Shown piece by piece: positions 16,735 to 46,221 of a stretch of DNA of 64,000 nucleotides. Under the pieces are notes generated by a model. The model was not told the DNA's origin. It ran no database searches and saw only the letters and a list, made by a program, of their open reading frames with translations. The position numbers and the translations under genes are program-made. Numbering within the stretch: the stretch's first letter is position 1; every line of letters starts with the position of its first letter. The DNA comes from a virus (taxonomy: Duplodnaviria > Caudoviricetes): IMG/VR virus record IMGVR_UViG_3300035497_000258, positions 32,001 to 96,000 of that record, one strand, 5' to 3'.

Positions 16735-17954
16735 TTAACCCCCCGATGTCTCGGAGTCCGCAGGCTTTTCAACAATGCCCTTCTCGCAATCACGTATTAA
16801 ATCAACATCAAGTTCATCTTCATCAATCACCTGAATCAGAGCCAAAACTTTATTATCGCTAAATTTCGTATAAGCGGGGAAAGCATCAACCACAAAGTTA
16901 AAAGTAGAAGGATCACCGCTAGAAGCCATACTAAATGTAAAGTTAGACTGGACTTTACCATTAGGAATAATAAACTCAGCAGGCATATCTCTACCATCGC
17001 TCTCGCGTCTAAACAAGGTATCGCCTTCAATGTAGAAGTTGCCAGAGAAACTATCAGCAGTAATTTCCATCTACAGCGCACCACTCTTTTTTGCAACATA
17101 ATAATCAACTAAAATAATCTTATTAGCTTTAATCTTAGAACAAGTAATTGTAGTATTACCATTACTATAAGTTACTGCTGTAGGTACACAAGGTTCATCA
17201 GTAATATAACCATTATCATCAAGAACCATAATATACATATCCGCATTTTCATTATAATTATCACCAGCAGTTAAATTATTACAAGCGGTAATATGTTCAA
17301 GAGTAATAGTACCATCAACACTTGCTTTAATTTGAGAAGTAGAATGAACATAAACGGGAGCCTCATCTTTAGCAGAAATTAGTCTTGCACCAGATAAAAT
17401 GGAAAATCCTTCAGGAGTTAGTAAAGCATCTTCCATATTAAAAGTAAGAGTTTTCTCGCCGTCCCAAGCAATTAAGCGCGTGTTACCTCGACCCATTATT
17501 ATTCCAATAAGCTCGCTACAGCTTATTGCGTTCTCTTATGAACTGCTATATCTTTATATATACATATAGATTAGACTATATCTTTTTCTCTTATAGAGAA
17601 ATCTTCCATTTCGACCGCCAATCACTTGCGGCCTACGTCTTTCGACTAGTCGTTGAACCTTACTTGAATTCTATATCTTTAGTAAGATATTCAAGCCTTG
17701 GCTGCTGATTGCCTAGTGAGGATTTTTACTAGGTTTTCCAGCAATTAGAAAGATTTGCTAATTCTTATCACTAAGAATAGGGGCAATCATTTACCCTGGG
17801 CATAAACTGTGGTAACAGCACCTTCTAAGCTAGAAGTTTTTAAAGAATCAAAATAAATAACAGGCTCATTCTTTAAGAATTCTCTTGAACCAAGTCTCAT
17901 TCTGCTACGCGCACGGAAAACAACATTGCAAATCTCGCGCGATCCAAACCGCAT
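16735..17954 (-). CDS. Major tail (tube) protein, spliced (17954-17793 plus 17493-16735; 306 aa), one TAG=Gln
   Basis: Splicing restores TVYAQG-GRGNTRLIAWDGEK; C-terminal FTFSMASSGDPSTFNF motif; TAG at 17071-17073 joins the two track ORFs. Confidence 0.82.
17494..17792 (-). ncRNA. ORF-less group I intron (299 nt) in major tail gene
   Basis: Exon ends CAGGGT, intron ends in G; Q AATCAGCAGC, R TTCAACGACTA, S AAGATATAGTC. Confidence 0.92.
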
Positions 17955-26679: not shown

Positions 26680-27582
26680 TTACACCACCTCCTCATAAAA
26701 ACACCACTTTAATTTTTCTCCAGTTTCTGGGTGAATACCAGCTGTTTCTTTTTTACCTAAGCAACAAGCTTTAATGCTTTTTCCAGTATCGAATAGACTA
26801 GACCATTTAGCAGCAGAAAGCATAGAATTAAAGATCTAATTAGTATTTATACAAATAACCTTTATACTACGTTTATCTTTATACTATCTTGTGTCTATAT
26901 TTTCTACATCGTTAATATAAATCCAATGTAACGGTATCCCAGATTCAGGATGTTTGCCAGAGCTTTTTCGCTCACCCCTGCAGCATTGCCCTATTCCAGA
27001 AACACTTTTAAGACCGCACCAATTAGCGGCCTCTTTTATTGTTGTAAAAATTTTTCCAGTCTCTAAATTTTTAACAATTTTACTATTTGGATTTTTATCT
27101 CCTTGACATTCTTTAATGCGTTTCTCTCTTTTAATAGGATCATTCCAGAAATTTTTTACTCCTCGCTATAAATTTTCTTCAGCTTTTTGAGCGAATTCTT
27201 TATTAGACCAAGATTTCTTTCTAGCCTCAGAGAAGCTTTTACTCATTTTCGCTTTATATTCTGGATTTTTCCACATCTATTCCATATAATTATTTCCACC
27301 AGGAGTTAAATTATATCCTTTATCAGAGTTAAAACTATCATAATAAGCAATCCAATAAACTTCTCGTTCGTTGGCTTCTTGAAAAGTTAAATTATCTTCA
27401 ATAATTTCATGCGAAAAATTTTCCCATCCATACTTCTAAATTGCTTTCCAAAATAAAGTGCATCCTTTATAATAAATACCATTACAGCTAAATCGCTATT
27501 TAATATTTTGTGTCTAGCCTATATAGATTTTCCCGTTAGTTAAATTAGTATGTTTATATATACAATATTTCTTTTCTTCCAT
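26680..27582 (-). CDS. Free-standing GIY-YIG homing endonuclease with NUMOD-type C-terminal repeats (300 aa), TAG=Gln
   Basis: Missing from the track; reads YCIYKHTNLTNGKIYIGQT...R...AIQKYGWENF...EREVYWI...GYN, then two IFxxxxxAA.W...CC.G...G.HPE.G..L.W repeats. Confidence 0.88.
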
Positions 27583-27669: not shown

Positions 27670-30319
27670 TTAGTTAAAGAACATCCAATCTTTAGCGTTA
27701 AATCTCTTTTTTCTTTTGACGTTATCTTCTTCTTGTCTAATATAATATAATCCATAACATAAAGCAGAAAATTTATCTTTTTTAATTGATTTACTTGATT
27801 GTTTTAATATAATATTTATACCTTCACGCTCTTCATAAAGATTAAGTAATTCTTCCTTTAATGTAGAGGTTAAAGTAAATGGCATAAGGTATTCCTCACG
27901 CTTTTCAGGAGTCATATTCTAGCCAACCTTAGTACCCATTAGTTTGTTTTTAGCCAATCTAGGTTCAATAAGGAATTTTAATCTACCACTATTAAGCGCA
28001 GACTAGACTGTAGAATATGCTTCTGTATTGATAGGAGCATTAGCTTTAATAATATAAATTGCTCCATCTTCCGTGTCGTTAGTTCTGAACTTTTTATAAA
28101 AACCTTCTTTATCATTATAGATACCAAAAGGAGGTAAAACCTCACCTTCATGTGTTAGCTAGGCCTTTACCATATAATCTAGAAGTCCAATGCCTACATT
28201 ACATTCTATATAAAACGCTACTCTTATATACGTTCTCTCATGAACTGCTTGCGGTTTCCCGCAAGATTAGACCATATCATCTTCTCATTGAGAAGCTTTC
28301 CGCTTCCACTATCAATAGCTTATAGTGTACTCTCTTTCGAGATGGTCGTTGAACTTTTTCCTTTAAAAAGGAACTTAGCTGCTGATTAGCATATCTTTCG
28401 ACTTAGCTTTCCAGCAATTCAAAAAGTTTGCTTATGCTGTCGCCAACATAAGGGGCTAAACATTTAACCCGTTGCCATCTATCACAACACGTCTAGCATT
28501 ATATTTATAAAAAGTCTCCTTGATTTTAATTGCCTAATCTTCGAAGTGTCCATCTTCTATAGTGTAAATATTAACTAAAGATTTAACAGATTCTCCTTGC
28601 GCGTGCGGCGTTACCTTGAAGACCAAGATCTCGCTATTACACCCCTTACGACCTACATCGACCGCAAGTATATAATATTGACCTTTTGTTGACTTAATAG
28701 TTGCTTCATATTCAGGTTTTTGTAATGTACGGTTAGCGTCAAAGCGCTCACCATCGAAGAAAGCACCCTCCGCAGTTCCAGTCCACTAGCTGCCCAATTA
28801 TCTTAAATACTAGTCGAATTATTCTAGTATCCATATACTGCTTTATCTTTCGATAAAGTTGAGACTATATCATTATTTAAATATATTTAAATATTTTGCA
28901 CTTCGATTTAAGGGGTTTTCACCCACGCCATTATATTCTTGCGCCCTACTCCTATTGTCTTTATGACCTATGGGATAGTCGTTGAACTTTTCTCTATTCG
29001 AGACTTAGCTGCTGATTACCCAATTTGCTTAATTTTCAAACATTCGCACTTAAGTTTATTTCATCTTTATGCTGTAGTTTAAGCAACTCTAAGGGCCTTC
29101 CAGCAATTCACAAAATTTATAGAGTACAGTCTTTTATACTCTCGGTCGAAGGAAGCTTCATCGAAAGTTCCCTCTCTCTTTAAATCACTGACGAAATCCT
29201 TATTAAGCATCCCTGCAAGCACAGGAACTCTATAAGTACCACCTAATATGAAAGCTTTTTCAGGTTCTACTATCATCTAAACAAGAGTAGTGATAAGTTT
29301 TTGGTAAGCGAAACTACCCTTATAACCTGCGGTCGTTATATATAACTAAGCCTAGTTTAAAACTTCATCCTAGTCCTATGAGCCATCTGCCCGCAATCGC
29401 GCAACGTTCATTGTAGGAATTAGAACTTCTTGTAGAATTTTACCATCCATACTAGCACATTCCTCTAATACCCCAGCGTTACGACGTTTACCTCTTGTCC
29501 GCTCATTTGCCGCAAGGTTATCTATAAATGATTTATTTTTAAACCTGTATATACAGTAGTCTTTACTCTCTTTTGTTTTACCTGGTCGTCTATCAATCTC
29601 GTTATCAAATGCAGGAATCATTCGACATATTTCATCCATTTTTTCTTGCAGGATTCCAGCGCTCTGTTGTTTGCCTCCTGCGGAAGTAAATAGTTTAGCA
29701 TTTGGATACAATATAGCTCGTATTATAAGGATTAAAACCGAGAGGAATGATTTACTATCATTGTATTCTAATAAGTGCGCAACTACTTATTACGTTCTCT
29801 TATGAACTGCTTACGGTTTCCCGCAAGATTAGACTATATCTTCATCTCATTTAAATAAATGAGAGTTCCCTATTTCGATTTAAGGGATTTTCACCCACCC
29901 CGTTAGCTTGGGCCCTACTCCTATTGCTCCTATTTCCGCGGGAGCTAAAGGATAGTCGTTGAAGCTTATTTCGTTGCCTGCGGATTCCCATGCTTAGAAG
30001 CGCACAAAATCTAAGTTTAGGGTTCCCGCAATTAAAGGAATTAGGGCAATATCATTCACCCACGCGGATAGACGCAATACACATAGCGATATCGCATTGC
30101 GACTCTTAAAAATACTCTCTAATAAAACTAGAGTTCAAGTTCTTTCTTTCTTGTATCATCTCTACCAGTTTGCATGAAATCCACAAATATATCTGGATAC
30201 ATCCTCCACTAAGCTACATACTATCCAGCAATAGGAAGAATAGCTTTAACTCGCTCTTCTGATAGACCAATTTTATTTCCTCTAGCTTGAGAAAGATTTA
30301 ATAAGTCTTGGAGTGCCAT
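27670..30319 (-). CDS. terL: Terminase large subunit, spliced (30319-30058, 29758-29136, 28794-28467, 28196-27670; 579 aa), TAG=Gln
   Basis: Splicing restores Walker A PRGYSKS, FDREYGSQWTG and the nuclease motif DGNGLGIGL; also RGKRR..GVLEE (Walker B), ITTAG, AVDVGR and KDKFSAL; exon total 1740 nt. Confidence 0.93.
28197..28466 (-). ncRNA. ORF-less group I intron 3 of terL (270 nt)
   Basis: GGG T joined to TA GGC gives G-L-G; Q AATCAGCAGC, R TTCAACGACCA, S ATGATATGGTC; terminal G. Confidence 0.9.
28795..29135 (-). ncRNA. ORF-less group I intron 2 of terL (341 nt)
   Basis: GAG TAT joined to GGC AGC; Q AATCAGCAGC, R TTCAACGACTA, S ATGATATAGTC; terminal G. Confidence 0.9.
29759..30057 (-). ncRNA. 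ORF-less group I intron 1 of terL (299 nt), inside the Walker A codons
   Basis: GGG T joined to AT AGT AAA gives G-Y-S-K; Q AATCCGCAGG, R TTCAACGACTA, S AAGATATAGTC; terminal G. Confidence 0.9.
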
Positions 30320-31580: not shown

Positions 31581-32615
31581 TCAGCCCTTCTTTCTGCAAC
31601 TTCTACAGGACTTGCAAATACTGTAGAAAGTATCTTTACTTGCATTATTTCTTGAAAAAAAGATACTGTGGCTTGGCTTTTTTTGCCCACAACGAGAACA
31701 TTTCTTAAAAGGAAGGTCTCTGTAGTGATAATACCAGATTAGATACTCCTCTATAGCGGCGTGCGCAATTAGTTTTGGGATTTTAGTAACCCAGAGATTT
31801 GAGATGTACTCGATAGAGTATGTGGAATCGAATATTTCGCTAAGTCCTTGCTATATTTCAAGATTAGAAGCGCCATCGATCTTGCGCTCGCACACATATT
31901 TTAGTTTAGGCTCGTCCGCAAGAGCTTTGTCGCAAACTCGGTCGAAAGATTCTAAGAGATACCACATATCACCCTCGAATTTACCGTAGGCGTCTTGCCG
32001 CAACTTGGAGTAATTTTGGAGGATTGCACTTACTACTTCGGTACGTAGTAGAGATACTCCTTCTGCTGATATTTCGTAATTGGAGGGTACGGTGACGTGT
32101 TCATCAAGAGAAGGAAAAATGGACTGCGGGCGCGTCAGCTTTTTGGGGATTACAGGCTAGGTATAAGATTGCTTTATGACATACTAGTCTTTCCGCATAT
32201 CTATTATTGCTTTTTTCATTATAAAAGCATCTCTGCCGCTAGCTTTCTTGATAGCGCTCTACCATTGATCTAGCGACTCCCGCAGTTGAGAGAGAAAGGG
32301 AATTGTATCTAAATCGGTTTGTGTAATTGAAATTTTAGGGGTTAGAGGTGTTTGAATATCAGAAACTAGATTGTAAATTCCATCTTCGCCATTTTCGAGA
32401 GAGGAAACTAGGCCTTCGAAGGAAGTTTCTCGTTTATTGATGGTAGCAAGACGGTTTTCAGTAAGTAGTTTACGTTGTTTCTTTTCAAAGCCGAGTATAA
32501 GATAGTCAGCAAGCTTTTCAAGATATTGAGAAGGAGGATTAGGAGTTTCTTGAAGGATTTGGTCTACTAAAGCTTTGCGCTAGTCTAAATCGGTTATTGT
32601 ATAATCTAATTTTAT
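31581..32615 (-). CDS. Hypothetical protein (about 344 aa) with C-terminal Zn finger, TAG=Gln, apparent ATA start
   Basis: Reads IKLDYTITDLDQRK...KKCSRCGQKK...SICKSCR; GAGGTG RBS 8 nt before ATA. Confidence 0.6.
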
Positions 32616-33344
32616 TGGGTTTCACCTCTTTTTATTTTAGTATAACAAATTGTAAAGGGAATGTAAAAGTAAGTCGCTTCGCTTCTTACTTTTTGGGGCT
32701 TAGAAGCCGGAGCTTTGCTTTTTGAAAATTTTTTTGATAAGATTTAATGGAAGGAAAGGAATAGGAGTTAAAAATTATTTTAAAATTAAATATTGTATTT
32801 ATTAATACTGTGTTTTGAATTTAAAATTGAATATCGTGTTTTGAAATTGAAAATTGCTTTGGGAGATTGTTTGGAGCAGGGCGGAGCCGAATTAAAAAAA
32901 TAAAAAATTTTCTCCCGAATTACACCCCCGGGTACTTCGATACTTCAACCTCAAAAAAATTAGCGAGTACTACCTAACCCTCCGCTTTCAATTTTCATCT
33001 AGTTCAAAACAACCCGCCTAAATGAGACTTCATTTTTAAAATCAATTAACATTCAAAATCGTTCAAGTCTACGCTCAAATAATAAAAGTCTTACAAAAAG
33101 TAACAAAACAATTAAAATTTAACAATAAAATACTTTGTAAGAGAAACAAAAGAAAAAATACAAAGATACTTAAAGGTACTGAGTAGCCGCTCGACTCCAC
33201 GAGGATGTACCTTCCAGAGTCTGCAGGATTGCGAGAAAAGAGGTAGAATGTTTTCTAGTTTAAATTCAAAGCTGGACTGCTACTGGAAAATTTTACAAGT
33301 AGAACCAGGTTTTGGTAAACGGCGAGCAGCTATCTTGTCCTTTT

Positions 33345-33671
33345 GCTTTAGCGCACTAAAGTTCTACAGTTTAATACGTTAAAGTCCGAATTTCTGGAAA
33401 ATACTACCAATAGTGTAATTTTTTACCAATAAGCAGCCGCTCGCACTTTAGCACACTAAAGAGCTAAAGCATTGAAGTGGCAACCACTTTAGCGCACTAA
33501 AGTGTAACAGTGTAATACACTAAAGTGCTAACGCTTTAGCGCACTAAAGCGCTAAAGAGAACTAACATACTTTGTTAATAGGTTTAGTACTTTACTACGC
33601 TAAAGATTTAAAGTGATGAAGTACGTTCAGTTTCGCACGCTAAAGTGTTACAGTGCAGTGCGCTAAAGTGC
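33345..33671. repeat. Cluster of CTTTAG-N4-CTAAAG palindromes and TAAAG repeats
   Basis: CTTTAGCGCACTAAAG x3, CTTTAGCACACTAAAG and degenerate copies. Confidence 0.8.
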
Positions 33672-35187: not shown

Positions 35188-35355
35188 ATGAAAATGACGA
35201 TTGAAGAATTGAGAACCGAATGGGCCGCATGGTGGGACGTTCATCCTGAAGCTGATGATATCGGCGCTATGATTTGCGGGTTTGCGGATGCTCACTCTAG
35301 TAACTTCGAAGAGTACAAGGAACTTGTCGAAGATATCTATGAGGTGTTCTACTAA
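35188..35355 (+). CDS. Hypothetical 55-aa early protein
   Basis: Promoter TGGTATAAT, RBS and AGAGGGCGAAAGCCCTCT terminator. Confidence 0.55.
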   Translation: MKMTIEELRTEWAAWWDVHPEADDIGAMICGFADAHSSNFEEYKELVEDIYEVFY

Positions 35356-35687
35356 GAGGGCGAAAGCCCTCTTTCGTCATTCTGCACAAAAATAATTTTC
35401 GTCAAATTGCACAAAAAATAAATTTGTTAGATTACACAAACTTTGAACGAGATTTTTGTGCACTTTGACCAATTACCAAAATTGGAAATTTTTGGCGACG
35501 GCGGCGCGCTTTCGACTGCTAAAGAGGAAGCGCGCCGTTTTTCCAATTATTTACATTTATACCGGAATTTTGATTGGTAAAAGCTGGAAATAAACCATTT
35601 TCTTCCATTCCCAAAATCTTCCAAAACTGGAATTGTAACTTCCAGAAATTGGTAAGGAAAAAATTTCCAAATCTGGAAGTAGCGCCT

Positions 35688-35915
35688 GCTTTCGCACGCT
35701 AAAGTGCTAAATACCTATTACCTAGTAGGTAAATGGGTAATCCGCTCGAGCGGCCGGGCAACCACTTTAGCACGCTAAAGTTCTAAAGTTTAGTGTGTTA
35801 AACCTACTAACCTAGTAGGGAAGTAGCTTTTGGGTTACACAGTTACGCGTATCTAGGTAACTAAACCTACTAACCCGGTAGGTAAGTCCGCTTTAGCAGT
35901 GTAAAGCGTAAAAGT
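35688..35915. repeat. Second CTTTAG/CTAAAG cluster with CCTACTAACCTAGTAGG repeats
   Basis: CTTTAGCACGCTAAAG, TTTCGCACGCTAAAG, and three CCTA(T/C)T(T/A)ACC(T/C)(A/G)GTAGG copies. Confidence 0.75.
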
Positions 35916-36490
35916 CCGAATTTGCGCACCCCATTCCATTATACCAGATTTTTTACCCGCTGTCCATTGACAAACTAGACAAAAAATTGATCCCGAATTT
36001 GTACACTTCGACGAATCGTGATTTTGCACAAATTTTGATCCCGGTTTTTGTGCAGGTTTACTAATTATGCAGATTGCACAAAGCAGGAGGTGAAAATTCG
36101 TGTACTTTGACGGATCCGGAAATTTGCACAAAGTTTGCGGGCGCCGATTGTGCAGGATGACGGCAACAGTTTGTCTACTGGGATCGGCTGGTAAACCTGG
36201 AAGCTAGATCCAGATTTTTTGTGCAGGCTGCACAATTTTGAGATCAAAATTTTGCTGTTATTTGTGCATTTAGGCTCTGGACAAACCAGGGGCGGCGGGT
36301 GTATAATGGGGGCACAGTTAAGGAAGGGACCCAAATCTTTGAAGGGAGAGCGGGCACGCGCACAAGGGGCCTCTTCCGGGCGGGCATAGGTCAGAATGCC
36401 CCGTGTACCTTGAAAACTGAATACCGGCATTTTCCAAAAACTACCAACACATATGGCTTTATGGCCTGATTCAAGAAAGGATTGTTTTAC

Positions 36491-36817
36491 ATGAAAACAA
36501 GAGAACGTGTAACACTGAAGGAATATATGCGTGTTGTGGAAAACCGCCCTGATTACTGGAATATCGACAGCATTGAGGTTGTTGTCCATACTCACTACGA
36601 TTGGTGGAAAAGAAAAACCCATAGATATTCCCCTTGGGAAATTCCTGCTGATTCCCACCTGTGGAATATGGAGATTCAAGCCGCCTATGTTCACCGGTTC
36701 GATGCCCCATATCTCCACTATAGGGACCTGTGCATCTACATTCTGGATGATGTTGACCCATTCTTTCCGAACGGTAGAGGTCTGGATCTAACCATGCTCC
36801 CCATCGAATTCATCTAA
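36491..36817 (+). CDS. Hypothetical early protein
   Basis: AAAGGATTG RBS and downstream hairpin. Confidence 0.65.
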   Translation: MKTRERVTLKEYMRVVENRPDYWNIDSIEVVVHTHYDWWKRKTHRYSPWEIPADSHLWNMEIQAAYVHRFDAPYLHYRDLCIYILDDVDPFFPNGRGLDLTMLPIEFI

Positions 36818-36891
36818 CCCCATAGGGCGCCGGGGTTTATACCCCGGCTTGCCCTGGCACCTTATCCGCTCGCTGATTCAAGAAAGAAGGT

Positions 36892-37119
36892 ATGTATATG
36901 GAATACAAATACTTCCTCTGCCAGGTGTGTGACCCTAACCCTGAATTCCTTAAGGACGGTGACAAGTTCATAAGGGCTTATATGGTTCATCATATGCCTT
37001 ATGGCGAACGACTTGAACCTAACGTTGAACTTTGGTTCATCCGCTACGAAAGAATCCGGGAAATCACAGAAGAAGAAGCAGAAAGACTCATGGTAAAAGA
37101 AGGTCTTTACTTCCTGTAA
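36892..37119 (+). CDS. Hypothetical early protein
   Basis: RBS and downstream hairpin. Confidence 0.6.
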   Translation: MYMEYKYFLCQVCDPNPEFLKDGDKFIRAYMVHHMPYGERLEPNVELWFIRYERIREITEEEAERLMVKEGLYFL

Positions 37120-37175
37120 TAACAAACATATCGGCCGGGGTGAAATTCCCCGGCCCACAAGAAAGGACGATACAC

Positions 37176-37499
37176 ATGACACTGAATGAGTACTATTCCA
37201 AGCTCTGGAACACTGAACACTACATCTCCGACATTGGCGAAACTTACCTCGAGCTTGGCAAGTCCACTATCCCGCTGTCTATGCTTGACAGTGATGACTG
37301 CCTCTGGAACTTCCGTGTTCTGTCTGCCCGGCAGAGCGATATCTGCTCTTGCCCCGACCTGTACGTCGAAATTGCCTATGACCCCAATGAAGATATCTGG
37401 GAAGCCTTCGGTATCTGCTTCATTGATAAGCCCTACGAATATGAGGAATGGGTTGACCTCGATGAAGAATGGGTCCTCTGCGAGGAATATGCAAAGTAA
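37176..37499 (+). CDS. Hypothetical acidic early protein
   Basis: AAAGGA RBS before ATG 37176; downstream hairpin. Confidence 0.65.
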   Translation: MTLNEYYSKLWNTEHYISDIGETYLELGKSTIPLSMLDSDDCLWNFRVLSARQSDICSCPDLYVEIAYDPNEDIWEAFGICFIDKPYEYEEWVDLDEEWVLCEEYAK

Positions 37500-37559
37500 G
37501 ACACAACAACAAAAGCCGGGGCTTATTGCCCCGGCGCAACAAAAGAAAGGATGATACAT

Positions 37560-37766
37560 ATGACACTGAGAATTTTCTTCCAGATCCCCGACCTTAGCGA
37601 TTATGACGAAACAAGGATTCATTACACAACTGAAAGCGGCAAGGCTGTTGCACGCCTTATTGAAGAAATTCCTCCCGACTCCCCCGTTTGGGACTACCAG
37701 GTTACCGACGCCGCCCCAATCAAATGGAAATCTACAACTGAATATGAAATATTCACCATACACTAA
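37560..37766 (+). CDS. Hypothetical early protein
   Basis: RBS and terminator GGGGCC-tatat-GGCCCC-T run. Confidence 0.6.
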   Translation: MTLRIFFQIPDLSDYDETRIHYTTESGKAVARLIEEIPPDSPVWDYQVTDAAPIKWKSTTEYEIFTIH

Positions 37767-37985
37767 GGGGCCTATATGGCCCCTTTTCTTTTGAAAATCG
37801 CATATGTTCCTTACTCCAGCAGCGCCCCGTTGGAAAATTCTACCAATTTGTATATGAAATTTTTCATTTCAATCCTATATGAATTTTGTACAGGTCTCTA
37901 GCCCCAAATTTGTGCACTTTGCCTCTTGCGGGGACCCCTGATTTGTGGTAAAATAGACTCAAGATAAAGAAAGGAAGTGCTTCAA

Positions 37986-38234
37986 ATGACAGCTACTTAC
38001 AAAATCGAAACCACCCGCGGAACTTTCGCCTATGACCTGGATTGCGCTGATTTTCCGGCGAATATCAGAACCATTCTCCAAGCAACAGCCGGACTGGTTC
38101 CCACAGATGATACCTGGGCATATGAACTCCTGCATATGGGTATCGCAAGCTTTCAAGGTGAAAATGGATATACCCCGGTCATTTTGGAAACAGAAGAAAA
38201 CAGAATTTGGACCTACCTGCCAGCTTTGGAATGA
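37986..38234 (+). CDS. Hypothetical early protein
   Basis: Promoter, RBS and hairpin. Confidence 0.6.
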   Translation: MTATYKIETTRGTFAYDLDCADFPANIRTILQATAGLVPTDDTWAYELLHMGIASFQGENGYTPVILETEENRIWTYLPALE

Positions 38235-38806
38235 GGGCCTATATGGCCCTCTTCCTACTTTGAAAGCAAAAGGAAAGAAATTGCGGACTCCCCTGCTACG
38301 TAGCTTTCATATGACTCGTTTCATATCACTATAGGGCAGGGACTCCCGCATTTCTTTTCTTACCAGTTTCCTTCTATTGTTTTATTTATTTCAAATAATT
38401 TTTTATAATAATTATAAAGAAACGGATAAGACTTCATTTTTAAAATAAGATACCCCTTAAAATAAAAAATTACTTAGAATTTGAAATAAAAATATTTACT
38501 TTTATCCCAAAATTTGTAATTAAAGATTTGGCGGCGCGCCTTCGGGCGTCCAGGAGAAGGCGCGCCGAGTTTCCAAATAATTACAATTATACCACATTTT
38601 TCGCTCGAAATCTATATGCAGGTTGCATAAAGTTCTAGTCCCAGAATTGTACAATTCGCCGAATCGTCAAATTATACAAAAATTTTTATTTTTCTCGCCC
38701 CGTTTTTGTAGAAGCTCACACTTGAAATTCTCCTTGTCCTCTGGTATAATGTAATCAAGATAAGGGAAGAGGAAAACCCACTGAACCTCAGAAAGGATTG
38801 ATAACT

Positions 38807-39145
38807 ATGAAAAACCTGTATCTCGCTTATCCCGGCACCTGCTTTGAAATCCCCAACTCCGCATATGAGTATATGGTCACCACTGGCGATAATGTGGTGA
38901 ATCTCTGGACCGGTGAGCTGATGCCCACTTACAAGTTCATCGAACGATATGGCCTCTCCGATGGATACCGGGAACACCACTATTTGGTTGAAGATATGGA
39001 AACTGGTGAAGTCATCCTCGTCTGCGCCTATATCCCCAAAGATGCCCTGAAGATTGCCTTTGAGCAACTTCGCTGGATGAACGCTCGTATCGTGGATGAA
39101 TACACTGAACTCGAGGCCGAGCTTTCCGGTCTGGATGAACTTTAA
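38807..39145 (+). CDS. Hypothetical early protein (YxVED motif shared with 40296-40709)
   Basis: TTGAAA-17-TATAAT promoter; AAAGGATTG RBS. Confidence 0.65.
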   Translation: MKNLYLAYPGTCFEIPNSAYEYMVTTGDNVVNLWTGELMPTYKFIERYGLSDGYREHHYLVEDMETGEVILVCAYIPKDALKIAFEQLRWMNARIVDEYTELEAELSGLDEL

Positions 39146-39162
39146 GAAAGGGGCTGGTACAT

Positions 39163-39615
39163 ATGATTCTTTGCTTTGACCTTGACGGCACCGTGGCTGA
39201 CCTTTATGGGGCCTCTGATTGGCTTTCTAGCCTAGAGGGAGAAAGAGCTGGGACATTTTCCCAGCTCAATCCCCTGGTCGATATGACCCGGCTTTCTGAA
39301 ATCTGCTACGCCCTAAAAGACGCCGGATGGAAAATTTTGGTAATCACCTGGTTGCCAAAAAATGCCTCTCCCGACTATGAGGCCACCTGCACTGAGGAAA
39401 AGGAAGATTGGGTATGGAATTATATGCCATACGTTGATTCCTTCCATGCTCTCCGGTATGGCACCCCTAAGCAGTCCGTGATTCCATATCGAAACAAGGC
39501 AGTACTTGTGGATGATAGCTTAGAAGTGCGGGCAAGCTGGAACTCCCCCAAAAAGCGGACTAGCATTGACCCTGCAAATAATCTCCTCCAAAATCTGGAA
39601 AGGCTCCTGGGTTAA
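39163..39615 (+). CDS. HAD-superfamily phosphatase (5'(3')-deoxyribonucleotidase-like)
   Basis: FDLDGTVAD motif I, IT motif II, K motif III, LVDDS motif IV. Confidence 0.8.
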   Translation: MILCFDLDGTVADLYGASDWLSSLEGERAGTFSQLNPLVDMTRLSEICYALKDAGWKILVITWLPKNASPDYEATCTEEKEDWVWNYMPYVDSFHALRYGTPKQSVIPYRNKAVLVDDSLEVRASWNSPKKRTSIDPANNLLQNLERLLG

Positions 39616-40295
39616 ATCCCAGGGGCCAGGAAAAAGGGGGTTGACAAATCTCAAAAAATATGGTATAATTTCAGTATCAAAAGAAAGGAATGAAAGATAT
39701 GCGGTTTCTCAAGGTATGTGGGGTTATGTTTCTCGCCTGGTTCTTGCTTAGCTTCATCGAAATCACGCTCTTCAATTCTCACCCCGGCGCAACATACTCC
39801 ACCTTCAACTTCTTCAATATGCTGTTCTGAGAGGGTTGATACCCATGAAAAAATTCTACGTTGATTTCACCGGCTGGTGCGAAATCACAGCCAAAGATGA
39901 GAAAGAGGCACGGTATAAGTTTGAATCTTATATCGCAGAAAACAAGCCTTTGCCTTGCAACATCTACGAGGTACAAAACGTCAAAGAAAAAGACGTAATA
40001 GATTGGAATGATTAAAGTTTAGTTCCAATTCGGCATTTTGCACAAATAAAAATTTTGTGCATTTTGCCTATTGACGGGCCGCCCATTATACCAAAAGCGG
40101 GCGGCCCGCAATCCAGCGCTGCGGGCCGAATTTTGCCATAAACTTCCATTATAGCAGATTTTTTACAGCTTGTCAACCAGCAATCTGCACAATTTTATCT
40201 TCCCGAATTTGTGCAACTTTCCATCTTGCAATCCCGCACACCCTGTGCTATACTATAATTGTTCCAAGGAAAGGAACAGAAAGGATTGATACATT

Positions 40296-40709
40296 ATGTT
40301 CAAACTGAAAGATGACCCTCGCTTCCTTATCCGCTCTGAGCGAGATATCCGCGCGCTTGACCTGGGCACTCATTTTGTACCCCTGGATGAAGAAAACTGC
40401 GAGTGTATTGTCACTCGTGGGCAGTGCGGGGATGACAAGGCCATTATTATGGTATGGAACGATGATTTCTTCATCTTCCCCATATGGCAATTTGCCGACT
40501 TCTGGCATGATGACCTCTACGGCGAATACCTGTTCTATGAGGTAGAAGATACCATGTCAGGAAAACGGTTCCAACTTCGGGCTTTCTCCGCCAAGAGCGC
40601 AGAAGAAAAAGCATATGATATTCTCAACTGGCGAGTGAAAGTCAACCGTATCGTGGTAGACCCAGAAGCGAACGGGCAGGTTCCGGCTCTCTGGTTCGAT
40701 GGTGACTAA
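40296..40709 (+). CDS. Hypothetical early protein
   Basis: Promoter, AAAGGATTG RBS and hairpin. Confidence 0.65.
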   Translation: MFKLKDDPRFLIRSERDIRALDLGTHFVPLDEENCECIVTRGQCGDDKAIIMVWNDDFFIFPIWQFADFWHDDLYGEYLFYEVEDTMSGKRFQLRAFSAKSAEEKAYDILNWRVKVNRIVVDPEANGQVPALWFDGD

Positions 40710-40754
40710 AGGAACGGGGCTATATGCCCCGTCCTTGAAACAAAAGGAGGTAAT

Positions 40755-41234
40755 ATGGATTACAAGCTGTTGGCACTTTTTATCGTGCTAAATATCATCA
40801 ATGTGATTATTTCCACCATAAAGTCCATCGCCACGGTAAAGTGCGGGAAGGGTGGCGCAGCGGTGGCGAATGCCCTCGGTTATGGTTTTTATACCATCGT
40901 TGTGGTTTATATGGTGAGTGACCTGCCCTTGTGGGCAAAGGTCTTGGTAGTCGGTGGATGTAACCTTGTAGGGGTGTATATCGTTAAGGCTATCGAAGAA
41001 AAAATTCAGAAAGAAAAGCTATGGAAAATCGAATTGACAGTGAAGAACTCTCAGGCAGAGAAACTGCACAAGGAACTTTCTGGATTCAAAATCCCGCACA
41101 ACTACATTGAAAACGTGGGCAAGTGGACTATTTTTAATGTCTACTGCGCTACTAAGAAAGAAAGTGCTTTCGTTAAGGAAGTAGCAGTGAGAAACAATGC
41201 AAAGTTTTTCGCAAATGAAACAAAGATTCTCTAG
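40755..41234 (+). CDS. Small membrane protein (DUF5698/DUF2179-like), ends at TAG
   Basis: Three hydrophobic N-terminal segments plus a soluble C-domain; AGGAGG RBS. Confidence 0.65.
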   Translation: MDYKLLALFIVLNIINVIISTIKSIATVKCGKGGAAVANALGYGFYTIVVVYMVSDLPLWAKVLVVGGCNLVGVYIVKAIEEKIQKEKLWKIELTVKNSQAEKLHKELSGFKIPHNYIENVGKWTIFNVYCATKKESAFVKEVAVRNNAKFFANETKIL

Positions 41235-41247
41235 GGAGGGATTTGGT

Positions 41248-41511
41248 ATGATAAAACGTATCTATTACAAGGAGATGAGCAAACTCGCCGCAGGGCTACA
41301 AAGACGTGGCACTAGGTTCGTTATCCGCACTTACCAAGGCGGGTTACAGATTCTCTGCAAGGGAAGAGGGTGGGACGCAATTTGTCACGACTATTCTTAC
41401 GGACATGAAGATGGGTTACTTGAAGTCATGGGGCTTCCGCAATGCAACGGTGACGTTATCGGTTACTTAACCGCAGAAGAAATTCTGAAAATGGTGGATG
41501 AAAACTCTTGA
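41248..41511 (+). CDS. Hypothetical protein (DAICHDYSYGHEDGLLEVMG motif)
   Basis: GGAGG RBS directly after the previous TAG. Confidence 0.65.
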   Translation: MIKRIYYKEMSKLAAGLQRRGTRFVIRTYQGGLQILCKGRGWDAICHDYSYGHEDGLLEVMGLPQCNGDVIGYLTAEEILKMVDENS

Positions 41512-42244
41512 CAACTCTTAGGTTTGGTGCTATAATAAGACTATCAAGAACAGAAAGGATTGATTAAACGACATGAAATGTAAAGACTGTCCCTACGCCT
41601 GGGAAGAAGATGACAGCGGTATCTTGGTATGCCACTGCGAAGAAGCAACAGCCCCGTGTGAGGAAGGAGAAGATGATGAAGTTCCAACTTAACTTTGAAG
41701 GTTGGTATGAAACCGAAGCAAATCTCGAAGAAGAAGCGATAGAAGAACTCGAAGCGTTTTTTGAATCGCTTCCCGGACTTAAAGACCTGGATATCTGGGC
41801 CGAAGAACAGGAGGATGATTAACCGGGAGAAATCCCGGTTAATTTTTGTGCAATTTGACTATTGACAAACAGCTTCGAGTGTGCTATAATTGGCGGGCCG
41901 CCAACGCCCAAGCGGCCCGAATTTTCCATAAATTTCCATTATACCACATTTTTTCTCCGCTGTCAATAGGCAAAATAACCAAACCTGGGATCCCGAAATT
42001 GTGCAAGTTGACGAAGGCGCGAATTTCCAAAATTTGGAAGGCCGCGGACCCTCCCCCTTCATTATACCACGGGTGCACGCCGCTTGTCAATAGGCAAACC
42101 GCACAAATTTGATCCCCGGATTTTGTGCAATATTCCATGTTGTGTTTTCGCTATTTTTCTGGTATACTAATAGTGTTCCAAGGGGAACGCAATCCGGTAG
42201 GGGACACGATGGTAAACCCCTATCTAGTGAAAGGACTTGATATT

Positions 42245-43225
42245 TTGGGAAAACGCAACTACTACCTAGTTCTGGACACCGAAACCGCTACTTTACCTTT
42301 TGTCAACCAGTACGGCAAAAGCGAAGCAATCCGCAAGAAAATTGCGATTGCAAAACCGCTGGTTTATGACATTGGGTGGCAAGTTATTGACACTCAAGGT
42401 AAAGTATACAAACAACGGAATTTCCTTATTCAGGAAACCTTCTTTGTTCCTTCTGTTTTCGATACCGCTTACTATCGAGACAAACGCCCCAAATACATTG
42501 AAATGATGGAAAAAGGCGAAATCGAGGTAGCGTGTTGGTATCAGGCAATCAATCAACTTCTGTGCGATTGTGAGAACGTCAAGGCGGTCTGTGCTTATAA
42601 TGCCGCTTTTGATTTCAAGAAGGCTATTCCGTTCACTGAGGCGTATATCTATGCGCTATACCATAACTACCAAGCTTTTGAGGACAAACAGAAGGAAAGT
42701 ATACAAAGGATTCTTTCCGGCCCGTCCAAAGACACAAACCCTGAATTTCTGAGCCCTGTTTTCAAGTTACGAGGTGAAGAATTTCCCATCATCGACTTGT
42801 GGGAAATTGCTTGCGATAGGCTTTTAAACAACAGAGCGTACAAGAAATACTGTCTTTCCCATGGTCTTTGGACTAACAGCGTTCAGTATTTCAAGTCAAG
42901 CGCAGAATCTTCCTATCAATACTTGATGAAAAACCACGCTTTTGAGGAATCACACACGGCGTTGGATGATGCAAGGATTGAAAGTGAAATTCTTGTAAAG
43001 GCTCTTAAGAAGGGCAAGGTTGAACCCTGTATGGGCTGTTTCCCCTTCCGCAACTTAGGAAACACCTTTGAGTTTGCGGAAAAGCACGCTAAGAAGCAAC
43101 TTGAACCTCTCGCAGATGCTTTGAGCGAGTACATCGAAACACTCGATGAAACAAGCGTATACTGCAAGAAAATGTTAAACCAGCTCCGCAAGCTGGAAGC
43201 GAAAATTCTTTACGAAAACGCTTGA
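42245..43225 (+). CDS. DEDDh 3'-5' exonuclease
   Basis: LVLDTETA (ExoI), AYNAAFD (ExoII), HTALDDA (ExoIII); TTG start after AAAGGA. Confidence 0.85.
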   Translation: MGKRNYYLVLDTETATLPFVNQYGKSEAIRKKIAIAKPLVYDIGWQVIDTQGKVYKQRNFLIQETFFVPSVFDTAYYRDKRPKYIEMMEKGEIEVACWYQAINQLLCDCENVKAVCAYNAAFDFKKAIPFTEAYIYALYHNYQAFEDKQKESIQRILSGPSKDTNPEFLSPVFKLRGEEFPIIDLWEIACDRLLNNRAYKKYCLSHGLWTNSVQYFKSSAESSYQYLMKNHAFEESHTALDDARIESEILVKALKKGKVEPCMGCFPFRNLGNTFEFAEKHAKKQLEPLADALSEYIETLDETSVYCKKMLNQLRKLEAKILYENA

Positions 43226-43337
43226 CGGATACCAAGATTTATGGTATAATAACTACGTTGTCAAGGGAAGGGCAAAACCTTCTTGACAAATACATCAAAG
43301 ACAAGGACAGTCTCAAAAACCAGAAAGGATTGATACT

Positions 43338-43700
43338 ATGAAGAAGATTACTAAGGCTCAGAGAAACGCTGACATCATCGCCATTCTGACCGGCAAAACC
43401 CCCGAACACGGTACCACCATTCAGGAAGCCGTGGCCCACCTGGAGAACGAGAACCGCCTTCTTGCCAATCGCAAGTCTAGTAAGAAGGTCTCCCCCGAGA
43501 ACGTGGAACGCACCGAGAAGCTGTACGAGCTGATTTCCGCAAGCGACAAGCCCGTTCTCCTGTGCGAGGTCACCAAGGGCAACCCCGACTTCTATGATAT
43601 TTCCTCTCAGCAGGTGACTGCGTTTGCAAACCGCCTGTGCGCTGATAACCGCATCGTGAAGGAAGTCATCAAGGGCCGTACTCACTTTGTCGCAGTGTAA
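43338..43700 (+). CDS. Putative winged-helix DNA-binding protein (similar to 50312-50704)
   Basis: MKKITK N-terminus, basic helix, C-terminal wHTH-like segment. Confidence 0.55.
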   Translation: MKKITKAQRNADIIAILTGKTPEHGTTIQEAVAHLENENRLLANRKSSKKVSPENVERTEKLYELISASDKPVLLCEVTKGNPDFYDISSQQVTAFANRLCADNRIVKEVIKGRTHFVAV

Positions 43701-43749
43701 ACCTTATCGGGGAAGGGGTAAAACCCTTCCCCCTTGAAAGGGGGATTCA

Positions 43750-44151
43750 ATGAGTAACACCGAGAAAGAAACCCAAATCCAGCGCATTATGAAAGGCATC
43801 CCGTGCGGACGTGCGGAAGCAGAAGAAATTTACGCCTATGACCTAAAAGTCAACTCCATGACCACCCGGCAGGAAATTCAATCGGACTTGACACCAGAAC
43901 AACAAGCAGTAGTAAAGAAGATGAAGCAAGCCGAACGCAAGAAAACGGTTTACAAGTTTTCCACAAGAGAAAAGAAGAAGGATACCGCAAAGGAAGATAT
44001 CATTTCTGCGCTTGTGCGGTTTGTGGAGAATGAAATCTGCGAAGGCTCCTGCATCGTGGAAAATCCATCCAGGAAATTCCAATTTGAGTTAGGCGGTGAT
44101 ACATACGACATTACATTGACACGCAAGAACAAGAAAAAGGGAGCGGGGTAA
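43750..44151 (+). CDS. Hypothetical protein
   Basis: RBS; operonic arrangement. Confidence 0.65.
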   Translation: MSNTEKETQIQRIMKGIPCGRAEAEEIYAYDLKVNSMTTRQEIQSDLTPEQQAVVKKMKQAERKKTVYKFSTREKKKDTAKEDIISALVRFVENEICEGSCIVENPSRKFQFELGGDTYDITLTRKNKKKGAG

Positions 44152-44181
44152 CACCCGCTCCCGCACGGAGAAAGGAATACC

Positions 44182-44421
44182 ATGTTAATCTACGTCAATC
44201 GCAACGAGGGCTTGATTTTTAATGAGGCAGGCTATGAAGGTACTCTTGAACGGCAGGCAAACGACGCTATGATTCATCTGACAGAGGACTTCCTGGAATT
44301 TATTGACAAAACCTGCACTCCGAGGAAGGCCTACATGGAAAGCGGAAGTGATGAAATTTTTGGTGCATACGTTGACTACTTGAAGGAAAATTCCCAGAAT
44401 TGGGAGAAAATGGAAATCTGA
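44182..44421 (+). CDS. Hypothetical protein
   Basis: AAAGGA RBS. Confidence 0.55.
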   Translation: MLIYVNRNEGLIFNEAGYEGTLERQANDAMIHLTEDFLEFIDKTCTPRKAYMESGSDEIFGAYVDYLKENSQNWEKMEI

Positions 44422-44699
44422 TGATTCTACGTTTTGCACAAATCTTGGCAACGAGATTTGTGCAAAATTTTTTCGCCAAAAGGCTTGACAGCTGGCGGAA
44501 AATGTGATATAATGGACGGCTCGATAACTGGCGCATCGAGCCGAGTTTCCGCAATCTTTTTATTATACCAGATTTTTTGCCCAAAGTCTATAGGCATTTT
44601 ATACAAACTTTGGATCCTGATTTTGTGCAATATTCCATCTTGTAATTCTGCGGAATTATGGTATAATAAATACAGAAATTAAGAAAGAGGTTGATAACT

Positions 44700-44936
44700 A
44701 TGGAAATTTATCTTGTGAGGTTTTCTGATGACTGTGGTGACTTAAATTCCTGCTGGACTTCTTACAGAAAAGCCTGGGAATATATCGAAGGTGAAGCTAA
44801 AAGATGTGGCTGGACCAGGATTTCTGAATATCGCAATTTCGATGCCAGTTATGGGGAGTACAAATTTTCTTTCAATGGTAATATTTTTACCGCTGAAATT
44901 GAAGGTTTTACTCTTGATGAAAGGCCCTATTTCTAA
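44700..44936 (+). CDS. Hypothetical protein
   Basis: Promoter TGGTATAAT and GAGGT RBS. Confidence 0.6.
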   Translation: MEIYLVRFSDDCGDLNSCWTSYRKAWEYIEGEAKRCGWTRISEYRNFDASYGEYKFSFNGNIFTAEIEGFTLDERPYF

Positions 44937-44955
44937 TAGAAAGGATTGATAGCAA

Positions 44956-45147
44956 ATGGAACTAAATGAAACTCGGTTGAAAGAGGTGATAACCGCCTTT
45001 GTTGATTACAACGGCTCTGATTGCTCTTGCTGTCCTGCCATGGAAGAATGTCCATTTAACCCGAGACTGGTGGAACCAGACTGCGAAAAAGAAATACTGA
45101 AATACGTCACTAAACAGGAGGAAAGAAATGAAGATAGAAGTAAGTGA
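44956..45147 (+). CDS. Small Cys-rich protein
   Basis: CSCCP..CP..C; AAAGGATTG RBS. Confidence 0.55.
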   Translation: MELNETRLKEVITAFVDYNGSDCSCCPAMEECPFNPRLVEPDCEKEILKYVTKQEERNEDRSK

Positions 45148-45787
45148 TTACCGCTTACGGGAAATCATCAACGGTTTTCTTGCTCTTGATGAAAACTGTG
45201 ACTTCTGCCCAGGTAAAAACCGTTGTCCCTTTGAATCGGAAGAAGAAGCAAACTGTGAGAAAGTGATACTTGACTTTCTTACTGGCCAGGATTGACAAAA
45301 TCCTGGCTTCTTTTTTGTGCATTTTGCCTATTGACAACAGGAGGAAAGTATGATAAAATTGGCGGACTGCGAGCGGGAGTGGCAGTCCGAATTCGCGCAT
45401 TATCTCGTTCATTGGAGATTTTTATCTGCGGTTGCCGCGCCCGCTTTCTATTTCTCTGCTTCCCAAAATTTTAAAATCGAGTAAGACTTCATGATTTCAA
45501 TAAACTATTAAAATCAAACTATAAAACAATTAAAAATTTCAATAAAAATTTTTTGCCTTTTCCGCAAATTTAGAGTAAAATAAACTTAGAAAATTAAAGA
45601 AAGGAGAAAGATTATGCTAGAGCTTTGGAAAGCGCTTATCCTTATCGTTGAATTTTGTACCGAGCAAGATTCCTGTGAGTCTTGCCCTATTCGCTCTATG
45701 TGCGGCAAGATTCCTTCTGAATGGTGATAAGCCAGGGCCCGTAATAGGGTCGTTTTTCCAGCCCACTCTAGCGTTAGGTGATTTTTC

Positions 45788-46015
45788 ATGCAAGAAACAG
45801 AGTTCACTAGAAAAGTAGATTCCATGGGAAGAATTATTATCCCCTCGAAGTTGCGGGAACGTCTAGGTATTAAAGCCGGAATCCCGTATAAGTTTTACGT
45901 CCATTCCGCAGGTGGAGAAGTATTTGTAGGCATTAAGTGTAAAGATACTCAAACCGTGAGAGATTATATTTTCGCTCTTGAAAGAGCTGGCTATGAAGTT
46001 ACAAAAAAGACTTGA
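45788..46015 (+). CDS. AbrB/MazE/SpoVT-family DNA-binding protein
   Basis: FTRKVDSMGRIIIPSKLRERLGI matches the AbrB N-terminal signature. Confidence 0.85.
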   Translation: MQETEFTRKVDSMGRIIIPSKLRERLGIKAGIPYKFYVHSAGGEVFVGIKCKDTQTVRDYIFALERAGYEVTKKT

Positions 46016-46221
46016 CAAATCTTCCGGAGTATGGTATACTATAAAGGGAGCTGCGGCGGGCTGCTAACGGAGTAAGCACCCGAATTTTGTCAAATCACAC
46101 TCCCATATGCAATTTTTCATATCAATCCAGCTCATATGCAAATTTTCCGCTCGATCCTGAAAATCTTTATTCCTTTCTTTTTTTAGAAGAGGCTGACCTT
46201 TAGAGTCAACCTCTTTTTATT

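Follow-up and report, generated by a model that had tools for sequence, protein, structure and literature searches.

A structure-conserved hairpin family in the early region of gut phages that read TAG as glutamine

The stretch of DNA analysed here, called the window throughout, comprises 64,000 nucleotides (positions 32,001 to 96,000 of IMG/VR record IMGVR_UViG_3300035497_000258) and is part of an uncultivated ~130-kb phage that reads TAG as glutamine. GC-rich hairpins with constant flanks recur in one part of it, several of them next to near-consensus promoters, and a preliminary description of the sequence took them for a family of units without an open reading frame (ORF). It offered three guesses on their nature: small RNAs, decoys for RNA polymerase or defence proteins, and cassette-exchange sites resembling PeSL or attC elements. 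The locus thus raises the question of whether these hairpins form a genuine family and, if so, what they do at their particular places in the genome. We find that they are a real, conserved and undescribed regulatory element selected for structure. Of the three guesses the PeSL-like one came nearest: the element is closest in kind to the PeSL cassettes of T4-type phages, with a different architecture.

A hairpin family conserved in structure

A covariance model, R1, was trained on 20 hairpins from five lineages, namely five from the window and 15 from four other genomes. When the whole 64 kb was searched on both strands with the filters off, R1 returned exactly seven hairpins, all on the plus strand, with E-values from 1.8e-11 to 8.8e-5, the eighth match having E = 0.87. 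These are the seven that the preliminary description had listed, each at the place given there, and they include two (matches starting at 35494 and 38524) outside the training set:

35502..35537, plus strand: H1, 8-bp stem and 20-nt loop, long class (36 nt); R1 match 35494-35549, E = 8.8e-5
38532..38567, plus strand: H2, 12-bp stem, long class; R1 match 38524-38579, E = 7.6e-10
40102..40128, plus strand: H3, R1 match
41894..41919, plus strand: H4, R1 match; between two convergent promoters that each score 12/12
44517..44543, plus strand: H5, R1 match; between convergent promoters
45363..45389, plus strand: H6, R1 match; within a possible 44-aa frame (45350-45484)
46057..46083, plus strand: H7, R1 match; last in the early region, stem with one bulge

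Relatives were gathered with the portal protein of the phage (TAG read as glutamine), which retrieved 45 related IMG/VR loci at 43–98% identity. Its GenBank matches were Phass-1 at 41% identity, filed as 'Caudoviricetes code 15 clade' and the sole named relative found, and large Enterococcus siphophages at 32%. A 338-aa early protein used as query retrieved two near-identical contigs only, and the DNA of the hairpin region had no match among GenBank phages in a near search and one of 206 bp in a distant search. The phages form a little-studied group of large Firmicute phages of the gut, with TAG as glutamine and a Firmicute-type promoter style.

The search of related phages with a covariance model, a step proposed in the preliminary description, placed the element in 16 of 20 records (72 matches), including all eight that are at least 90% complete; the four records lacking a match are fragments of 10–57% completeness. 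Each genome has 1–12 matches, which lie on a single strand and cluster within 10–15 kb. From 19 fetched stretches (363,935 bases) we obtained 84 R1 matches, 72 of them distinct, the larger number including near-identical orthologs and not representing 84 independent events. Phass-1 has two matches, and R1 made none in the 142-kb Enterococcus phage EF1. The element spans relatives down to ~40% portal identity, with structure kept and sequence not: as had been noticed in the window, stems differ among copies yet stay paired.

A flank pattern fixing 4 bp of the stem matched in seven of 19 related records, giving 22 matches, on one strand per genome, against one for the reversed-pattern control; of the 21 distinct matches, 14 have at least four further consecutive Watson-Crick pairs. 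The joint motif CCGARTTT-N13/14-ATTATANCA occurs five times in the window and not once in any of 100 shuffles. Across IMG/VR, a pattern for the module matched several times in two contigs only, the other loci listed having single, chance-like matches. The earlier view that this is not a described family holds: Rfam had no match in the region at its gathering score, and the four chance-level matches at E <= 1 fall far below that score, none of them on a hairpin. The words promoter, hairpin, terminator and repeat do not occur in the main text of the Phass-1 paper (PMC10607447), and in the hairpin-bearing stretch the Phass-1 record carries coding-sequence annotation only.

We compared the seven hairpins, with fixed anchors, to their orthologs in the nearest record, G001, which is collinear with the window at ~93% identity. 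None of the 124 stem positions has changed, against 64 of 847 other intergenic positions (Fisher p = 2.8e-4). Ten of 80 loop positions have changed, nine of which represent one indel in H1. In alignment A1 of the hairpins 89.4% of pairs are kept versus 67.6% in shuffles (0 of 500 as high), a count that is partly circular, as its sequences were picked by a hairpin scan; the argument therefore rests on the flank-only test and the ortholog comparison. Single-hairpin folding z-scores are modest (-0.8 to -3.9), and the significance lies with the family, not with any single fold.

Hairpin anatomy, gene context and promoters

In the window, the hairpin stems open with CGG and close with CCG, enclose loops of 9–20 nt and are followed by A(A/G)TTT, unlike the short-loop T-run terminators of the same region. 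Across the family, stems are of 8–14 bp and mostly GC, most loops are of 5–20 nt, and the AT-rich flanks are asymmetric, reading TTKGG on the 5' side and AATTTYC on the 3' side (T at +4 in 71 of the 72 distinct hairpins, A at +1 in 55). Measured from stem base to stem base, the hairpins are 25–28 nt (56 of 72), 36–38 nt (15) or 48 nt long (one), with none between, regardless of how stem and loop share the length. By eye, GGAG is found in four of the seven window loops and not in other lineages. The 5' arm of H3 is contested by an alternative upstream hairpin at 40075-40108 (GGGCCGCCC/GGGCGGCCC).

The hairpins of the window lie within 33.2-46.2 kb, a region whose small plus-strand genes use the standard code and have strong Shine-Dalgarno sites, with a GC content of 40–48% as against about 30–37% across most of the flanking sequence, and dense TTGACA-N17-TATAAT promoters; we infer that this is the early region. 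The hairpins are co-oriented with the early genes and stand at the 3' ends of co-directional gene clusters, a feature that the preliminary description did not have. As with intrinsic terminators, a same-strand stop codon precedes them within 150 nt in 68 of 82 cases (median 67 nt). The next start codon follows at a median of 203 nt, and 76 of 84 hairpins lie outside crude same-strand ORFs.

Lineages differ in what surrounds the hairpin. In G002 and G003 it lies 18–31 nt past the stop codon in 12 of 14 cases, with no T-run terminator before it (by eye) and no minus-strand promoter, and a second hairpin (CCGCCC...GGGCGG) abuts or overlaps its 5' arm, much like the one at 40075-40108 in the window. 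The order in G005 and G010 is gene, canonical terminator, 2–4 nt, hairpin, 6–8 nt and consensus minus-strand promoter, beyond which an AT-rich spacer containing TGCACAAA...TTTGTGCA palindromes leads to the promoter of the next gene. Ordinary terminators are also present in the window:

41821..41840, plus strand: ordinary terminator (short-loop hairpin and T-run) of the upstream cluster, before the H4 unit
35355-35372: equivalent ordinary terminator
38233-38251: equivalent ordinary terminator
40039-40061: equivalent ordinary terminator
44431-44468: equivalent ordinary terminator
45285-45307: equivalent ordinary terminator

H7 is followed by CATATGCAATTTTT repeats and then by a shared terminator at ~46188-46215. 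Repeats of CATATGCAATTTTTCATATCAATCC occur after this last hairpin (46105-46157) and again at 37852-37875, and similar CCATATG...ATTTTTT motifs are found after the last hairpin of G006, G008, G009 and G014.

Promoters were identified by a sequence scan against TTGACA-N17-TATAAT, scored out of 12; the coupling counts given below use scores of at least 10. Those associated with the window hairpins are as follows:

41862..41890, plus strand: rightward promoter abutting H4, 12/12, TG extension; -10 ends 3 nt before the stem
44485..44513, plus strand: rightward promoter abutting H5, 12/12, TG extension; -10 ends 3 nt before the stem
45331..45359, plus strand: rightward promoter abutting H6, 11/12, TG extension; -10 ends 3 nt before the stem
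46012..46040, plus strand: rightward promoter 16 nt before H7, 11/12, TG extension
41938..41966, minus strand: leftward promoter facing H4, 12/12; 17 nt between -10 and hairpin
40148..40176, minus strand: leftward promoter facing H3, 12/12
44562..44590, minus strand: leftward promoter facing H5, 10/12
42061..42090, minus strand: leftward promoter, 12/12; faces a decayed hairpin remnant (GGCGCGAATTTCC, 42014-42026)
35938..35966, minus strand: leftward promoter, 11/12, absent from the preliminary description; faces CCGAATTT (35916-35923)

The four rightward promoters had been reported and score 12, 12, 11 and 11. The accompanying statement that no ribosome-binding site or ORF follows them is accurate for three units and fails at 45331, where AGGAGG-N5-ATG opens the 44-aa frame through H6. 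Four of five proposed opposite-strand promoters (41938, 42061, 40148 and 44562) are upheld by their scores; in place of the fifth, the sequence after H2 has ATTATACCA, a minus-strand -10-like element (ATTATA at 38586) with no -35. Beyond the promoter at 35938-35966 there is a ~250-nt structured, palindrome-rich stretch instead of a short hairpin. As for the 44-aa frame, AGGAGG-N5-ATG lies within the spacer of the 45331 promoter, and H6 would be coding; the frame persists in G001, where it starts with GTG and where the single difference seen further downstream is synonymous.

The coupling of promoters to hairpins, suggested by the window, extends to the family. A leftward promoter lies within 45 nt of the 3' side of 30 of the 84 hairpins, where 2.0 are expected from local density (a 15-fold excess), at offsets of 6–8 nt in 23 and 17–19 nt in seven. 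On the 5' side, a rightward promoter ends within 25 nt of 18 hairpins against 3.3 expected (5-fold), 12 of them ending at 2–3 nt. Seven hairpins have both promoters and 43 have neither, with 41 of 84 having a promoter that points in. The coupling is found in 10 of 14 genomes and is absent in G002, G003, G009 and G013, which account for 25 hairpins, a point likewise missing from the preliminary description. In the window, G001, G008, G014, G020 and Phass-1, the extra promoter ending 2–3 nt before the stem makes two promoters face each other across the hairpin, the facing -10 boxes being only 36–48 bp apart. The abutting plus-strand promoters resemble the minus-strand ones even in their spacers, where sequence is shared between left and right promoters, with 81% complementarity of the arms 41935-41966 and 44485-44516. 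When the window is compared with G001, the abutting plus-strand promoters have 0 of 48 hexamer positions and 9 of 68 spacer positions changed; for the minus-strand promoters the figures are 1 of 42 and 0 of 51.

Position and promoters together bear on one explanation, that these are ordinary terminators of neighbouring genes and the adjacent promoters incidental copies of abundant early promoters. The hairpins do follow stop codons in the orientation of the genes, with GC-rich stems and some T downstream, and promoter-like sites abound there (286 forward and 96 reverse in 184 kb). Intrinsic (Rho-independent) terminators also include the NusA/NusG-assisted weak terminators of Bacillus, and a GC-rich, co-oriented hairpin soon after a stop with T-rich sequence downstream resembles them. 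However, the U-tract is non-canonical in 62 of 72, with no more than one T among the three bases next to the stem on the 3' side and a mean of 3.7 T over the first eight; the first two 3' bases are mostly purines, the loops are long, and many hairpins stand directly behind a canonical terminator. Moreover, the fixed 4-nt flanks persist to 40% portal identity, and the promoters exceed background at fixed distances with conserved hexamers. We therefore regard ordinary termination as a very unlikely account of the family.

A proposed boundary module between early operons and competing readings

Our preferred reading, which we hold tentatively and which draws on sequence comparison, is that the hairpins may be the core of a repeated composite module marking the boundary between early operons, like the T4 PeSL cassettes. 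To a rightward transcript, the hairpin would be a barrier or 3'-end structure insulating one operon from the next. Because its U-tract is weak and displaced, we read it as a non-canonical terminator or attenuator, which some lineages would use on its own and others behind a canonical terminator. The downstream consensus sigma-A promoter would, in most lineages, fire leftward, with its start at or 11 nt before the hairpin, and the resulting RNA would begin with the complementary hairpin and run antisense into the end of the upstream operon. The usual distance from -10 to start is 7 nt; with a -10 that ends 2–3 nt before the stem, the plus-strand promoters would thus start inside the 5' arm, and in several lineages transcripts from this left-abutting promoter would carry a truncated hairpin only and could pass, by the logic of the T4 PeSLs, in which the promoter encloses a terminator. 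The ORF-less units would then be parts of one compact bidirectional insulator/promoter cassette, not free-standing genes. The neat promoter-to-terminator small-RNA genes imagined earlier do not fit the closeness of the plus-strand promoters to the stem and the poor 3' U-tract. As the hairpin keeps its place and flanks in lineages with no adjacent promoter, its core role appears independent of the promoters, and we connect this role with the ends of rightward early operons.

The comparison with PeSLs can be made on several points. In the early hyperplastic regions of T4-type phages, PeSLs recur as intergenic cassettes that each combine a sigma-70-type promoter with a stem-loop (PMC2839356, PMC4122927); the stem-loop sits between the -35 and -10 or over the -10, and its terminator activity was shown experimentally (Arbiol et al. 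2010, PMC2839356). The two systems share a ~100-bp repeated intergenic cassette in a plastic, ORFan-rich early region (Arbiol et al. 2010; Comeau et al. 2014, PMC4122927), a near-consensus sigma-70-type promoter with a GC stem-loop of variable stem, and a stem-loop thought to halt upstream transcription that the promoter restarts. A possible further likeness is the cassette-sized indel of G002/G003, whose junction lies inside the repeat. The two systems differ in the placing of the stem-loop, which here lies just downstream of the -10 (2–3 nt, 12 cases) or has its promoter on the other strand 6–19 nt beyond the stem. Further differences are the unrelated phage lineage and host type, the fixed 4–5-nt flanks on both sides, the frequent second, opposite-strand promoter aimed back at the hairpin, the many copies lacking any adjacent promoter, and the position of most window/G001 indels away from the cassettes.

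Several observations weigh against the boundary module. The U-tract, one of the features that define intrinsic terminators, fails in 62 of 72 hairpins, and most loops are long (5–20 nt). A second barrier directly behind a canonical terminator looks redundant. Promoters that face each other must exclude one another, an odd way to drive the downstream operon. Among 647 stem positions in the 72 distinct hairpins, 638 form Watson-Crick pairs, four G-U, one A-C and four other combinations, and the folding energy is equal on both strands; with almost no G-U pairs and equal energies, there is no sign that the plus-strand RNA is the selected molecule. The G-U versus A-C test of strand yields 4 versus 1 in the hairpins, counts too small to decide, and 14 versus 2 in a control of 90 ordinary T-run terminators of the same regions. 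Finally, a model of an RNA hairpin does not predict the quantised lengths. The redundancy, the facing promoters, the missing strand signal and the quantised lengths keep both RNA-gene and DNA-level rivals alive.

The first of these rivals sees in the promoter-hairpin units genes for short RNAs that act as RNA. These would be either tiny 5'-triphosphate GC hairpins of ~30–45 nt or leftward RNAs of ~70–130 nt, consisting of the hairpin plus the reversed terminator hairpin and antisense to the 3' end of the upstream operon; they would time early-gene shut-off or serve as decoys, and may be compared to lambda OOP RNA versus cII. OOP and other cis-antisense RNAs act at gene 3' ends, and here likewise a constitutive promoter downstream of a gene cluster would fire back into its 3' end to give a highly structured RNA. 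Differences from OOP are the many copies per genome, each with another 5' hairpin, and the lack of a defined terminator in most copies as found here. The short RNAs gain from the consensus promoters running at fixed distance into hairpins in 10 of 14 genomes and in Phass-1, and from the way in which promoter hexamers are conserved while spacers drift. The 6–8-nt offset would place the leftward start at the hairpin base and produce a 5'-terminal stem-loop, which stabilises RNA in Firmicutes, and the equally good pairing of both strands fits two-strand use. A U-rich run (e.g., UGUUUUAG) comes after the reversed terminator in some modules of G010 and G005 and would end an RNA of ~75 nt. Three hairpins inside plus-strand operons (44162-44139, 37535-37515 and 37155-37133) have a T-run on the minus strand only, and would pass rightward transcripts and stop leftward ones, as if halting antisense transcripts. 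However, the 25 promoterless hairpins of G002, G003, G009 and G013 indicate that the core function does not need these RNAs. The stem differs in every copy, which leaves no common target or binding partner, and complements of the loops in the window are of chance-level length (8–10 nt). Most reversed terminators have no U-run, and a discrete rightward RNA is doubtful, as it would start inside the 5' arm and end at a poor U-tract. On balance, we consider RNA genes possible, if somewhat unlikely.

In the second rival, selection acts on the palindrome as DNA, within a duplex that is helically phased, either as a structure-prone site of recombination or replication or as a GC clamp next to very strong promoters that would retain RNA polymerase and so serve as a roadblock or sink. 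The nearly complete Watson-Crick pairing with no strand asymmetry and the AT-rich flanks would suit such an object. The three length classes are about one helical turn apart, with nothing between, and the promoter offset is likewise quantised at 6–8 or 17–19 nt; the H1 ortholog in G001 has a loop 9 nt shorter, an indel that switches the long class to the short. On the other hand, the orientation relative to genes is invariant and the flanks are asymmetric. Moreover, the length classes could descend from two ancestral copies, substitutions leaving length unchanged, and the G-U share is not significantly below that of ordinary terminators (4/647 vs 14/779). To us, selection on the DNA itself is quite unlikely.

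Exchange between close relatives bears on the same possibility. The seven block junctions between the window and G001 comprise the H1 loop indel, one junction at 45308 on the left margin of the H6 module, and five at gene boundaries, one of which (41553-41565) falls in a ribosome-binding-site stretch, GAACAGAAAGGATTGAT, repeated five times. Breakpoints between close relatives are thus mostly away from the hairpins, against a recombination site. For a DNA-level role speaks the join inside a repeated module in G002/G003, as in PeSL shuffling: G002 has one extra 2.1-kb cassette, the sole whole-cassette indel of the pair, and its junction is a shared ~65-nt stretch in the promoter part of the module, 26–115 nt 3' of the hairpin. 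Hence repeated modules may plausibly recombine with one another.

The attC-like exchange sites of the preliminary description, and with them site-specific exchange at the hairpins, are not supported, the mapped junctions lying mostly elsewhere. Like attC, REP and BIME elements, the hairpins conserve structure over sequence, fix the outer bases and occur at gene 3' ends. But attC stems are imperfect, with extrahelical bases, and REP stems are conserved in sequence within a family; the present stems are perfect with no extrahelical bases (638/647 Watson-Crick), their exchange points are away from the hairpins and their sequences vary among copies. We accordingly rejected membership in the integron attC class, as cassette boundaries are not at the hairpins and the stems are not imperfect.

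In a further view, which we also rate low in probability, each phage would have 4–12 dedicated mini transcription units whose sole product is a GC hairpin RNA from either strand of the perfect palindrome. The length classes and promoter offsets would in that case follow from the geometry that RNA polymerase adopts on duplex DNA. Were this true, the units would be a new class of phage small RNAs (decoys or early shut-off timers) or polymerase-trapping insulators with no described counterpart.

We give almost no credence to a further pair of ideas, namely that the hairpins mimic host CRISPR repeats as RNA anti-CRISPRs or are N4-type DNA-hairpin promoters for a phage-borne RNA polymerase. Each unit does consist of a hairpin and a fixed ~8-nt tail with its own promoter, and a hairpin placed after one operon is at the same time upstream of the next. 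Yet mimics must match one repeat, and there are 72 distinct hairpins among 84, with differing stems. As for N4, its hairpins have 5–7-bp stems and 3-nt loops, sigma-A promoters already serve each operon, and the giant ORFs of the window (2366 and 1260 aa) have no RNA-polymerase domain in Pfam. The tape-measure matches (PHROGs) fall on a separate 330-aa ORF at 13554-14543, not on the two giant ORFs, which are left without an assignment.

The hairpin offers a sequence-level marker of the early region and a map of operon boundaries in the TAG-as-glutamine phage group. Read as a boundary module, it would be a second, independent case, after the T4 PeSLs, in which composite promoter/stem-loop cassettes organise a plastic early region. 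The constant flanks, the promoters that point at the hairpin from one side or both, and the quantised lengths go beyond what the cassette descriptions in the PeSL reports contain. If the hairpin-facing promoters are active, the arrangement would be a natural, compact solution to bidirectional insulation or antisense control.

The phage and other features of its early and late regions

The reading of TAG as glutamine is evident from the minus strand of 1-32 kb, which has few long frames under table 11; with TAG as glutamine it opens frames, the longest of 2366 aa, and among them are matches to portal (E 5e-85), tape-measure and further structural families (PHROGs). These late structural genes (window 1-32219, minus strand) open only with TAG as an amino acid, the 2366-aa frame having 83 in-frame TAG codons, and the standard code applies to the early plus-strand genes at 33.9-46 kb. 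Of the eight tRNAs of the window, none has a CTA anticodon. The late region also contains four group I introns above the Rfam gathering score, all on the minus strand (17552-17802, 28248-28475, 28841-29175 and 29810-30134), with a GIY-YIG endonuclease-like ORF close by (26683-27582). The AT-rich divergent region at 32640-33200, between late and early genes, has iteron-like repeats (GTGTTTTGAA-TT-AAAATTG, twice) and may be a replication origin or lie near a genome terminus.

Nine of 10 early-region proteins have no Pfam family. The last early gene (45788-46015) encodes a 75-aa protein with an AbrB/MazE-type (SpoVT) DNA-binding domain (Pfam E 1.3e-5; PHROG 'antitoxin' E 4.5e-9) and is a candidate regulator of the early promoters. 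Two kinds of palindrome occur in this region. The first is operator-like and is typified by the copy between a leftward promoter and the promoter of the next gene:

42098..42136, no strand assigned: operator-like palindrome, (T)GCACAAA-N-TTTGTGCA, one of eight

The eight, of the form TGCACAAA-N14-TTTGTGCA, lie directly upstream of early-promoter -35 elements in both orientations, at 35431-35469, 36023-36061, 36123-36161, 37885-37923, 40184-40222, 42098-42136, 44433-44471 and 44598-44636; the half-site TTTGTGCA-N-TTGCC-TATTGACA is conserved in G005, G006, G014, G020 and Phass-1. The second kind is a 16-bp palindrome, CTTTAGCRCACTAAAG, which together with related CCTACTAACCTAGTAGG palindromes forms arrays in the long ORF-less stretches 33340-33670 and 35680-35915, and these look like a putative binding-site array. 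The loops of H1 and of several G010 hairpins contain GCTAAAG half-sites, which also occur beside one G008 hairpin.

At 36278-36450, an 11/12 promoter is followed by a ~130-nt ORF-less leader, the 3' part of which (GGTCAGA...CGTGTACCTTGAMAASTGAATA) is kept in G001 and is 82–84% identical over 38 nt in the distant G002 and G003; Rfam has no match to the leader (36314-36450, 137 nt), which folds no better than its shuffles do (z = +0.95). In the non-early regions of loci L150, L153 and L154 (G005, G010 and G007), a conserved promoter-like motif, TTTTTATAAAAAATT-ATGATATAAT-ATTTATAG, follows terminators and is probably the middle or late promoter of the phage group.

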